This document shows, piece after piece, positions 7,771 through 49,753 of a DNA stretch of 64,000 bases. The translations under genes and the position numbers were made by a program. A model generated the notes under the pieces. The model ran no database searches, had not been told where the DNA came from, and saw only the letters and a program-made list of their open reading frames with translations. Within the stretch, counting starts at the first letter, position 1. Each line of letters begins with the position of its first letter. The DNA is from Eledone cirrhosa (lineage: Eukaryota). Location of the stretch: the NCBI GenBank assembly GCA_964016885.1, contig OZ024746.1:88598001-88662000 (forward strand), written 5' to 3'.

Positions 7771-8249
7771 ATATTAGGACATATATATCCGTTTCTACAG
7801 GGTTAGCAATTTCAAGGTAAAGTGAAAGTGGTTTAAATGGATCCCATTGCCTTAGTGGTACTTTATTATATCGGCAACGTAAGGATGAAACTTTTAAATA
7901 TATTATTTAGAAGAGGTTCTGTGATTGAGCAATTCACCTCACAATCACGGAGAAATTTTCCGAGGTGACAACACGAAACCCCCGTAGTGGCGTTCGAATT
8001 TACACCCTATTAATATATATATATATGCATACACATACAAATAAGACCGTTAGTGCTCCTTGTAGTCTACTCACACTCACATCTATATATATATATTGTT
8101 ATGCTTTAGGAGGGTCATGTTTCCAATAAGAAACAGACGCACCAGTTGCTTTACACTCCAATTTATTATAAATTAAATTCATAAATTTAAGAATTTATAA
8201 ATTTCCGGTTGGTTGGTTGGTTCCACAACCAGACGATTGTTCATATATT

Positions 8250-8293
8250 GTCAAAGTTATTTCGTCACACATTATGTGAGACTCTTCAGTGAC
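8250..8293 (-). ncRNA. Type I hammerhead ribozyme (family B)
   Basis: gtca-CTGAAGA-gtctcacataatgtgtgac-GAAA-taac-TT-tgac. Confidence 0.75.
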
Positions 8294-8922
8294 TGGGGAT
8301 TCTTTTTTTGTTTTTTTGCCTCTCCTTTGTTCTGTCCAACGCCATCATGTTTTTGTGTGTGTTGTGTGCTTAGTTTGCGCATGTGTTACATTTGTGTGTC
8401 TGTGTGTGTTTATATTTGTTTATTTATTTGTTTATTTACATGTTCCTGGTTGGTTGTTTGTTCTATGTGTGAGTCTTTTTCATTTTGTCCTTAATTGTAA
8501 GTTGTGATGTTGCTATTCCATTCATGTTTTCTATTTAATTTTGGTTGGAGTTCATTTATGTTTATTGACTCTGTGATTTGTCTAAACACTGCGTCTTTTC
8601 TGTGAGTAGATTCTATTTTTATTTCTATGTTCTCTAATTTACTCTTATGTTCTATTTTAGCATGTTGGTGGAGTACATATGATTCTTTACTATCTTGAAG
8701 CTCCGTTCATTTATCCGTTCTTCTATACTACGAGCTGTCTCACCTGTGTACACTATATTCTTATACGAGGAACATGTAAATAAACAAATAAATAAACAAA
8801 TATAAACACACAATTACACCTGGATGTAACACATGCGCAAACTAAGCACACAACACACACAAACACAAGATGGCGTAGGACAGAACAGGGGACAGACACA
8901 AAAACAAAGAAAATAATCCCCA

Positions 8923-8966
8923 GTCACTGAAGAGGTCAGAGAATGTGTGACGAAATAATTTTTGAC
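8923..8966 (+). ncRNA. Type I hammerhead ribozyme (family B, inverted copy)
   Basis: gtca-CTGAAGA-ggtcagagaatgtgtgac-GAAA-taatt-TT-tgac. Confidence 0.75.
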
Positions 8967-10140
8967 AATATATGAACACTCGTCTGGTTGTTGAACCAAC
9001 CAACCAACCTGAAATTTATAAATTCTTAAATTTATGAATTTAATTTATAATAAATTGAAGTGAAAGCAACTGGTGCGTGTGTTTCTTATTGGCAACATGA
9101 CCCTCCCAGAGCATAACTATATCGGTTTCAACACACGTTTTTAGATAAAGAATCTTGCTAAACAAATTCAGAAACGAAAAATATATATGTATATATATAT
9201 ATATATATATATATATATATATATATATATATATATATATACCAAAAATACAGAAAGACTGCTATATAGAGGAGATGGTGATTATATAGAACCATGACAA
9301 ACAAAACCGATGTAATTCATTGATCCGTCCTATACACGGCAGCTTTAAAATATATATTAACTATACTGCTGTCCTTGTTGCTGTGTCATGGTGTGTGTGT
9401 GTGGTTGGAGAAAATTCAAAAGCTGCAAATCATTTTCCGGAGGGTTATTATCAAGACAATATTGGAAAACAAAACGACTTTGATATAAGTGACCATAAAT
9501 TGAATTATGAATATAGTTTATAAGTGAACGTAATAATTTCCCGTCTTGCTTTGATATAAAATATTAGATTCATCCGAAATACATACATCAGAAAACAAAG
9601 TAGTACAAAATGAATAAATAAACTCGAGATATCGAAGTATAAATATGTAATATTTGTTATTATGTGTTTGCGGATGTATGTGTGTTTTTAAGTGTTTATA
9701 TGTGGATATGTATGTGTTTGTATGCGTTGAGGTTTCATAGACTATTTGTCTGGGTATTTCACTCACGATAATATATCATGAATTCAATTCCCGGCAGTGC
9801 GTTGTTTTCTGGAGCAAAATGATTTCCTTTACAAGACGCGAGTCCACACAAATAGTTCCCATGTGATCCAAAATGACTTTGTATCACGCTGAATCTCTAT
9901 GTTACATTACGTATACAGGACTTGCGAAATGCTCAGCCACTTGTAAGTATTATGTACAGGTTCTATTTCATTATTCGAACGAACGTTAGACTCGCCAACT
10001 TAACCGAAGTTTGTCCAACGCATTTTTATTTGAAACAGATATCTTTGAATCTCCCTGTCTTTCACTCACATTCATTCACACTCTGCCAGTCTCTCTCTGT
10101 ATACCCCCTATATATATATATATATATATATATATATATC

Positions 10141-46955: not shown

Positions 46956-46974
46956 ATATAAAAAACTACATATC

Positions 46975-49387
46975 ACAATGGGATATCACAATGCGATCAA
47001 ATGACTGCGCAAATCACTGACGTCGTGGGGCTTTTTATAGCACACAACCTACATAAGGAATTCAGTAACCTCCAAGGAGGGATTTATAGAGATGACACGC
47101 TCCTTATAGCTAGGAACTTAAACAACCAGAGCATGCACAGATTAATAAAAAACATTAGAACTTTCTTCGAAAAACTAGGCCTAAGTGTTACCTACGAACT
47201 GAACCATAAACAGGTAAACTTTCTAGATGTGATTCTAAATCTAAATACGGGATTAATAGAACCCTTCCACAAAAATAATGAGAATCTGGCCTACATTAGT
47301 TATAACACAAACCACCGCAGATCCATAATCAGATACATAGCACGTAGTATATCCCTTAAAATATGCGCTTATCCTCAAAACTGGAATGGTTTAATGAACA
47401 TGCTAACTATTATAAAGCGGCATTACATAGGGCCGGACATAAAGATAAGTTGCAGTTTATAACGAATAAAGACAACTTAACCAAACCTACTAACAATGAC
47501 ACCAACCGCTCACACAAAAATAGAGGTAACAGGACTAGACATAGAGTTAGGCACGTAACACCTAGAGTAAGTGGTCCAAACACCAATAAGTTAAACCCTA
47601 GAAACAATAGAATATCATAGAAAGAAAATACTTGTGGTTCAATCCAATCTTCAACTACTCTGTAAAAACTAGACTGCCTTCTACGTTCTTTAAATTAATA
47701 GATAAACATTTCCCTATATCACACAGATATCATAAAACTATAAAACTCTCATACTCTACGGCTGCAAATATAGAATCACACATACGCAAGATAAACCACA
47801 GAAATACCTCTAGGGAATCCGCCCCACCTATGCGCAACAAGCACCAAATTATAATCATAAACACATCACAATATCACAACCGCAGACGCATACAAGCACG
47901 CAGCAGCAAAACCTCAACGGGCATAAATCACAACCCACGTATAGCAGTGTACAAAACAGCAGTGTGGAAGCTGCACGGAATAACACCTCAAACTGCAACT
48001 CTCACTTAATGGATAGGTGCCCATTGGCGAATAGATGCCTTGATTCGAGCCTAGTGTACATATGTACGGTCAACTCGGGCAACTCCACTTGGCATTACAT
48101 TGAATCCACCGCGTGTACTTTTAAAAGAATATGGTATATGCACATACACTCGATGAAGAACCGTGCACTTATAGGTTCTACAACCCTCGCCAAAAAATCT
48201 GGGAACTTAAGGACAATAACGCCAACTACAGTATCAACTGGTCGAGGTTGTCGGCCGCAAGGGCTTACAGTACCGGTATGTCCTACTGTAGGCCATGTGA
48301 TCTCGAATTACTGTATATCCTTAGGAATGTAAAAAGGCTACTCAACAACAAGTTAAAAAGATCAATGTTCTGTAGACACAGAATCGCCACTAAATTCTCA
48401 AGATTTAAGCCTCCTTGAATCGAGCCGACATTACTTAGCATTCAACATATGATATCCACAATATTACACGGACCACCACAGAACTATAATCATTAAGTAA
48501 ATTCTAGCCTTCTTAATTCTATACCACAGTAATGTCTGCAAGTATCTTATCAACCCATAAATATATCCCTTCTCAGCTGCTGTCAACACAACTTCCTCAC
48601 CCTTGACTCTCAACAAATGAACCTAAATCCAAGTACATTTTCAAAATACCACTATAGTAAAACATTACCTTCCTCCTGTATAATTGTAATCATCATGTTT
48701 TCTCTTTATATATATATATATATATACATATATAGCCTCCTTAACATCTGTACTAACTTACCTATTATATTGCTACTCTGTTAATGACATCTTATACATG
48801 TATGTTATTGATGATGTGAAAGCTAAACAACCCCATGATTCGAACTAACAATCCCTTCATCTAATATAGACCACAAAAATATTGAATCCACTTCACACGA
48901 CAAAATATTACTATCCTCACTACCATGATAAATATTTTATCTGTCAGATAATAAATGATTCTTACGGTCACCAGACCTTCGGTAAAGGAAATGGTGCATT
49001 GTTTAAAGCTACCGGCTTATCTTTACACTATATATAATACACCCCATGACAGCTTTGATATGTTATTTTCATAAATCTGCCTCATGTCAGCTCATTTTAC
49101 ACGCTAAAGTCGTTGATATACTATATTTCTTACTTAGATTGATGTTGTGATTATTTCAAATAATTTATTGCTAGCATTGTTAGCATTGTTGTTATTGTTC
49201 TGATTGAATGCCGTTACTATATATAGAAGCCATGCCTGTGTATTCCCTTCATTCTCGCAAGCTCTGATGAATTGACTGGTTACAACTATGTATTGGTGAT
49301 CGAATGACTCCAAACCAGGCGAGTAGCGATCTCTAGACCTACCAGTTCAGAGAAACAATTGTCAGCAATGAGATTAAAAAACTTTTT
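46975..49387 (+). mobile_element. 5'-truncated Naiad-type PLE (family D): RT, GIY-YIG, ~1-kb 3' UTR, HHR
   Basis: AQITDVVGLFI..GGIYRDDTLL..VNFLDVILNL; WFNPIFN; CPLANRCL..VYIC..YIESTACTFKR; CRPCDLE..LLNNK..CRH; ends near (TA)n. Confidence 0.92.
49253..49373 (+). ncRNA. Type I hammerhead ribozyme, ~80-nt stem II domain
   Basis: tctc(gcaa)gct-CTGATGA-attgactggt[..]accagttcaga-GAAA-caattg-TC-agc(aat)gaga; GUC triplet. Confidence 0.85.
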
Positions 49388-49550
49388 TGTATAGCAAACC
49401 GTATATATATATATATATATATATAAATATATATAAATACACACATATTTTTATACATACACAATATATATATATATATATATATATATATATATATATA
49501 TATATATATATATATATATATATATATATATATATATATATATATATATA

Positions 49551-49753
49551 TAACGGAGGAAATGTGGTAAGGAACCAGGTGGACCTTAACGCACCAAAGT
49601 ACTCAATACATAGGGTAGTAGAGTGGGTAATAGGAACGAGTGGGACCCCGGCGGCTGAGCCTAAGCCGTTTCGACGGCTAATTCTGGACTGAAAATTAGA
49701 ATTAGCCGTCGAAACGGCTTGAGCTCAGCTGTCGGGGCCCCACTCGTTCCTAT
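49551..49753 (+). repeat. Short element ending in a GC-rich ~124-nt hairpin, between (TA)n tracts
   Basis: ATAGGAACGAGTGGG..CCGTTTCGACGGCTAATTCT / AGAATTAGCCGTCGAAACGG..CCCACTCGTTCCTAT. Confidence 0.85.

Follow-up and report, generated by a model that had tools for sequence, protein, structure and literature searches.

Head-to-head Penelope-like insertions in Eledone cirrhosa and the position of their turning points relative to hammerhead motifs

The inverted repeats in a 64,000-nucleotide (nt) stretch of the Eledone cirrhosa genome (assembly GCA_964016885.1, contig OZ024746.1, positions 88,598,001 to 88,662,000 of the forward strand; hereafter the window, with positions counted from its first letter) are likely, judging from sequence, to be insertions of Penelope-like elements (PLEs) that carry an inverted, 5'-truncated copy, an architecture that has been published. 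The families are new here; the layout was known already. A reading of the letters alone, the original prediction, had proposed that reverse transcriptase (RT) stalls or folds back at the hammerhead ribozyme (HHR) of these elements. We found that the turning points lie no closer to the HHR than chance predicts for short copies, one to three possible exceptions apart. The units, which belong to several PLE families, probably arose from two primed complementary DNAs (cDNAs) joined via short complementarity. What the hammerhead does for PLEs, and how the inverted copy arises, are described as open questions in parts of two recent studies (PMC8557442, PMC11167929). Turns placed consistently at the ribozyme would help with both questions, but the window does not show such a rule. 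The additions here are modest: families that are new but built in the known way, junctions with short overlaps, and tails carried by the shorter arm, which fit the two-strand priming described in vitro.

Inverted repeats and their Penelope-like identity

Inverted repeats were borne out at all eight places named by the original prediction, both by BLAST of the window against itself (E-values from 1e-31 to 0) and by alignment of the arms, which are 86-99% identical and enclose spacers of 12-1431 nt. Since the arms differ, and given these E-values, neither chance nor a perfect read chimera accounts for the repeats. In every unit with a readable strand (from the HHR motif and the strand of the open reading frame, ORF), the 3' ends of the element face outward. 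Five further palindromes were found. One, at 6187-6329, is a second copy of the family at 49630. The other four (6940-7286, 28944-29148, 42844-42944 and 60609-60726) have spacers of 2-23 nt; a core pattern scan detected no HHR core in them, and no second copy was found in the window (by BLAST for three, by nhmmer for all four). Inverted pairs made only of short interspersed elements (SINEs), at 16294-16694, 14413-14646 and 7686-7890, were taken as separate insertions.

The predicted PLE origin with an inverted 5'-truncated copy is supported by the head-to-head arms, the outward 3' ends and the ORF remnants in two spacers. These remnants are ends of GIY-YIG endonucleases, which argues that the units are PLE insertions. 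The spacer of 29684-31802 (family D) encodes an RT thumb and a GIY-YIG endonuclease, according to its translations and protein relatives; this piece near 30 kb is matched by 150 of 150 relatives. The spacer of 8093-9122 (family A) encodes the end of a GIY-YIG-like ORF, recognized by eye and from a feature-based lead only, for which two word-index protein searches retrieved no relative. Families A and B, whose ORF is cut short at the GIY-YIG motif, may resemble the Neptune clade, which is marked by a CX2-5CxxC linker and a CCHH motif.

Matches to one large protein family (7028 proteins at E up to 0.001, of which the best 150 were used) are shared by family D and the elements at 1-730, 13.0-14.9 kb, 47.0-48.4 kb and 55.5-58.8 kb. 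A C-terminal GIY-YIG domain after the RT is seen at 30022-30757 and 57954-58799, with a Pfam GIY-YIG match (E=0.0013) short of the curated cut-off. The translations have the features of the Hydra clade: a CxCX5C linker (present in 98 of the best 150 relatives), no CCHH cysteines inside GIY-YIG (the inner cysteine-pair pattern occurs in none of the 150), and CxxC plus CxH near the C terminus. As far as the relevant passages of PMC8557442 go, the clade shares with family D and the elements at 47-48 kb and 55-58 kb a C-terminal GIY-YIG, the CxxC/CxH end, (TA)n targets and an HHR; its CxCX5C linker is seen in family D and in the 55-58 kb element, with no cysteine pair inside GIY-YIG. The same passages give DKT as the RT motif of the clade, whereas the decayed copy at 47-280 reads DKA, and the family D HHR core is CAGAAGA. 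Among 24 long relatives DKT is the commonest motif (18 read DKT).

The layout resembles the insertion unit that Craig et al. 2021 (PMC8557442) describe in part for endonuclease-bearing (EN+) PLEs: a 5'-truncated copy stands inverted beside the 5' end, one end only has a tail, the pseudo-long terminal repeat (pLTR) contains an HHR (putative here), and insertion is into (TA)n. The published tails measure 30-40 nt, against about 40-85 nt here, and most of our units are short, with no complete ORF. A one-sided tail is present in the 8093, 11649, 29684 and 49630/6187 units. No target-site duplication was evident by eye, and the flanks are mostly (TA)n, of which this AT-rich animal DNA has many runs. 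A non-long-terminal-repeat retrozyme was rejected: the named units are inverted, not tandem, and a tandem arrangement of two HHR-bearing units is confined to 45941-46979.

Hammerhead motifs and the turning points

The HHRs were called by pattern matching and inspection, and their cleavage is predicted only. An Rfam search of the whole window gave no hammerhead match up to E=1. Minimum free energy folding, which is poor at HHR topology for minimal motifs (z below -2 in 1 of 10), was left out of the evidence. The relaxed core pattern has about one chance match per 300 nt, hence cores with one mismatch are weak alone. With these limits, a putative type I HHR lies in the terminal repeat, complete in three of the eight units, decayed or variant in four, and without a 5' core half in one. 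Complete motifs with an exact core are at 8289-/8927+, 10587+ and 29388-/29567+. The core at 11893+ (unit 11649) is exact, with a poor or decayed stem I; two units have variant cores (CAGTTGA at 15335, CAGAAGA at 31784); at 33903 (unit 33761) the 5' half of the core is present and GAAA absent; pattern and inspection did not find the 5' core half in 49630-49753. In parts of a study of minimal metazoan PLE HHRs (PMC4209133), these are of type I with a tiny stem III, as here, and Schistosoma has HHR pairs on opposite strands 100-700 bp apart; the passages concerned contain no mapping of breakpoints. The variant core CAGAAGA occurs in four of the four family D copies listed (14793, 24461, 29702, 31784), stems I-III being retained in the complete copies, and is a candidate natural core variant.

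The original prediction had described all the repeats as an HHR-bearing tail plus its reverse complement. This stands in part: seven of the eight units have a core motif, but the Rfam search is null, only three motifs are complete, and in three units (10134, 11649, 33761) the HHR is located in the spacer, outside the arms. The bracketing of an HHR by 10141-10945 agrees with the type I core at 10587, which lies in the spacer. The proposal of 49630-49753 as an HHR half can claim a putative 3' half but no 5' core half.

A stall or fold-back at the HHR as a general rule finds no support in the breakpoints, which are spread between -1757 and +213 as counted from the core, nor in the permutation and the non-inverted controls, which gave null results. 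Measured from the HHR body, the nearer breakpoints of the seven core-bearing units are at 157, 138, 20, 29, 77, 320 and 0 nt; the value of 320 nt belongs to 29684-31802, whose HHR sits at the outer end. A turn within 0-100 nt, as had been claimed, is true of four of the seven but equals chance expectation: reassigning arm lengths in all 5040 permutations gives a mean of 4.6 units within 100 nt (P=0.90), and a mean of 3.1 within 40 nt for three observed (P=0.71). Short-arm length and the distance of the HHR from the 3' end are not significantly correlated (Spearman -0.43, P=0.33, n=7). Ends within 100 nt of the HHR are as frequent among non-inverted copies (4/7) as among inverted ones (8/14; Fisher P=1), and those within 15 nt amount to 1/7 and 2/14. 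These counts left out the tandem unit 45941-46217 and the fragment 25630-26012 and treated 46630-46979 as non-inverted; boundaries were drawn on alignments, with a possible error of a few bases, and the numbers are small. The HHR is near many turns because it lies 55-360 nt from the 3' end and the short arms are 144-381 nt long. A uniform distribution of breakpoints along the elements, the yardstick first proposed, is the wrong null, since all copies are biased toward the 3' end and the HHR is also 3'.

Sequencing reads of family A point in the same direction, as support and not as proof. Three contig sets from one sample and one restriction-site-associated DNA (RAD) run were aligned to 8040-8800, and the family is high-copy (8,362-9,231 contigs per run). 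Five inversion junction types were read among the 15 of 122 joints shown, together with a letter table: 8150/8471, 8465/8759, and three joining about 8372-8378 to about 8455-8465. The three are similar in sequence and may be one ancestral event. The junction ends lie at +139, -83 to -89, -166 to -182 and -470 from the core at 8289, none of them within the HHR (8245-8295). Ends with mixed flanks accumulate most strongly at 8200 (+89) and at 8496 (-207, next to the ORF stop). Many family A-like copies in the RAD reads end at these two positions with mixed AT-rich flanks, hinting at a non-autonomous subfamily of roughly 300 nt with fixed ends, one at the ORF stop. Several candidates were dropped: a joint at 8477-8771, an artefact of extending the reference 36 nt into the second arm; joints at 8152-8282 and short skips, taken for divergent collinear copies; and a metagenome scan with a 19-nt family A motif, whose four loci (two matched over the motif only, two without a listed hit) were put down to chance.

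Some observations weigh against an independence of turn and hammerhead. With seven units a modest enrichment could be missed, and most RAD reads begin at the restriction site 8383, which masks truncations between there and the HHR. In 33761-34087 the entire spacer is an HHR-like core: the long arm begins 4 nt before it and the short arm stops just past a possible cleavage triplet, with GAAA absent and the register of stem I off by 3 nt. The 49630 and 6187 copies have one common centre, inside a possible stem II that is followed by GAAA, and the non-inverted stub at 11206 begins at the edge of stem I, 10 nt before its core. The palindrome at 33761 and the 49630/6187 family fit a turn at the ribozyme if their decayed motifs are HHRs, but these motifs are putative. 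It is conceivable, and we offer it tentatively, that in a subset of families (33761-34087, 49630-49753, 6187-6329) the hammerhead sets the turn, the cDNA running off at the cleavage site or pairing via stem I/II. If true, this would provide, along with tails on either arm, genomic evidence for HHR cleavage of PLE RNA in vivo and for two-ended priming as the origin of the inverted pLTR. That the HHR, through its fold or the RNA end left by cleavage, sets the turn across families is unlikely: beyond the null controls, in six of the seven units the turn is at a distance of 20-320 nt, none of the family A junctions shown falls in the HHR, and the supporting cases have the least convincing HHRs. 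Moreover, HHR mutants insert normally in vitro, cleavage being unneeded for insertion (PMC11167929, in the experiments concerned). A literature search, which did not reach supplements and subscription papers, found no study mapping inversion points against HHRs.

Origin of the head-to-head arms

In the mechanism that we consider probable, an AT-rich target would be cut on both strands, and each cut strand would start a cDNA close to the 3' end of the element RNA; both cDNAs would stop early and then be joined through a few complementary bases. Two cDNAs, each with its own priming, explain the one-sided tail of the shorter arm better than a single folding cDNA does. The tail is on the short arm in both family A and B units (9123-9180, 11577-11648), and a tail-less long arm cannot, as a template, give the short arm a tail, which speaks against a fold-back copy as its source. 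As the short arm also lacks long-arm sequence, both arms were likely templated on RNA. In family D the tail is on the long arm. The purified protein of a lizard PLE cuts and extends both strands, and two nearby RNA start sites define its tail, according to the parts concerned of PMC11167929. That element, Poseidon_Ac, thus resembles our units in its two RT start sites with an optional tail, the extension of both strands and AT-rich targets, and uncleaved HHR RNA serves it as template; it belongs to a different clade, and a head-to-head joined product does not figure in those parts.

The junctions show short overlaps, of 6 nt in the 11649 unit, about 3 nt in the 10134 unit and 2 nt in the 8093 unit, at places where both flanks are known from a second copy or from the majority of reads. 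None of four testable junctions (overlaps of 2-6 nt) uses an HHR stem. An apparent 10-nt overlap at the 8765 junction was discarded, as the majority letter at 8770 leaves 2 nt.

A rival account, in which a single cDNA halts, turns back on itself wherever it is locally self-complementary (the HHR being one of many such sites) and copies outward, seems to us rather unlikely as the general origin, and yet it explains some features well. The best is at 19475-19496, where a 6-nt palindrome yields a perfect 11-bp fold-back. The 14-nt spacer of 29281-29674 (29471-29484) repeats nearby arm sequence and looks templated, and small hairpins occur in the 15250-15300 spacer. Both arms of the 8093 unit have the same non-majority letter at 6 of 13 listed places, and at five of these six the copy near 19 kb has the majority letter; these shared private letters, which count in favour of both accounts, indicate that one source likely made both arms. 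In Adineta vaga, Penelope junctions have head-to-head inverted pLTRs with junction palindromes or overlaps, like those here, and the palindromes were interpreted as self-priming on an antisense template, in parts of PMC3846280 that link no junction to an HHR. The 11-bp fold-back and the templated spacer so resemble self-priming of a nascent strand that fold-back also occurs, which weighs against two primed cDNAs as the only route; so does the attribution of the tail to resolution (PMC8557442, in part), for a tail trimmed from the first arm would rescue a single folding cDNA. On the other side, the short-arm tails of families A and B and the orientation of the loop relative to the tail, which is opposite in the 49630 and 6187 copies, demand extra trimming or inversion.

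The short palindromes without ORF remnants (14966, 29281, 33761, 49630/6187) might alternatively be fold-back DNA transposons like miniature inverted-repeat transposable elements (MITEs), or copies of a palindromic master. They match none of the 150 proteins, their flanks are TA-rich, two copies have one centre, and the four further palindromes lack an HHR core. We regard this as improbable, since 29281 has a complete type I HHR in each arm (z=-2.9), the 49630/6187 tail is one-sided, and only this family has a second copy in the window, with asymmetric ends.

Feature map and neighbouring repeats

Table 1. Inverted units and related copies in the window (identities are between arms unless stated otherwise)
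Feature	Position	Strand	Remarks
Family A long arm (unit 8093)	8093..8764	-	GIY-YIG ORF end (stop near 8491-8493), 3' untranslated region (UTR), HHR core 8289, no tail; arms 8093-8450/8765-9122, 90.6%
Family A short arm	8765..9180	+	HHR core 8927; tail 9123-9180 on this side only
Short inverted arm (unit 10134)	10134..10283	-	Copy of 10801-10949 by arm alignment; arms 10134-10283/10801-10949, 94%
Long arm, well-formed type I HHR	10284..11050	+	Core 10587, predicted cleavage site 10656
Family B short arm with tail (unit 11649)	11577..11837	-	Tail 11577-11648, 77% like family A tail; arms 11649-11837/11954-12142, 95%
Family B long arm	11830..12142	+	Core 11893 (stem I decayed), no tail, 6-nt junction overlap
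Young palindrome	14966..15584	.	284-nt arms (14966-15249/15301-15584, 99%), 51-nt spacer, variant HHR-like cores 15215(-), 15335(+)
Young palindrome	29281..29674	.	190-nt arms (29281-29470/29485-29674, 99%), each with type I HHR (29388-, 29567+), 14-nt spacer
Family D short arm (unit 29684)	29684..30028	-	Outer end halts inside HHR stem II; arms 29684-30028/31460-31802, 88%
Family D long arm	30029..31840	+	RT thumb, Hydra-type GIY-YIG endonuclease, 3' UTR, variant core 31784 near 3' end
Palindrome	33761..34087	.	Arms 33761-33899/33944-34087, 86%; 44-nt spacer 33900-33943 with HHR 5' core half, no GAAA
Small palindrome 49630-49753	49545..49753	.	Arms 49630-49685/49698-49753, 91%; 85-nt one-sided tail; putative HHR 3' half
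Second copy of 49630 family	6187..6376	.	Central loop flipped relative to tail
Family A copy with tail	19114..19497	-	5' end is the perfect 11-bp mini fold-back 19475-19496, 95 nt upstream of core 19393
Non-inverted family B reference copy	24619..25310	-	Core 24865
Non-inverted family B stub	11206..11435	+	Begins 10 nt upstream of decayed core 11216
Long non-inverted Hydra-type PLE	55520..58790	-	Canonical HHR core 55703

The family A short arm is 87% like the copy at 19128-19488, in an alignment that runs through the tail, and the long-arm region of the 10134 unit has a terminal direct repeat (10262-10402/10908-11050). Only a short TA run (29675-29684) separates the palindrome at 29281-29674 from the family D short arm, at its truncated outer end. 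In the region 46630-48420, a minus-strand HHR-bearing piece (46630-46979; core 46935, long loop II) lies head to head with a plus-strand Hydra-type RT-EN ORF. This piece has no match in the 3' region of the adjoining ORF, and the arrangement is possibly a junction of two different RNAs; a second unit, at 45941-46217, carries the same HHR.

Other repeats of the window include four tRNA-type SINE copies in direct tandem at 32298-33075 and full SINE copies head to head, 77% alike, at 16294-16694; the common SINE may resemble an octopus SINE. Two related minus-strand remnants, at 35100-39620 and 52056-54341, are candidate Helitrons from their helicase-like look by eye, one of them containing a 69-nt tandem array at 52544-53100. 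A 3' fragment resembling a long interspersed element is present in two copies, 86% alike, at 5784-6191 and 19880-20286, beside (TA)n.

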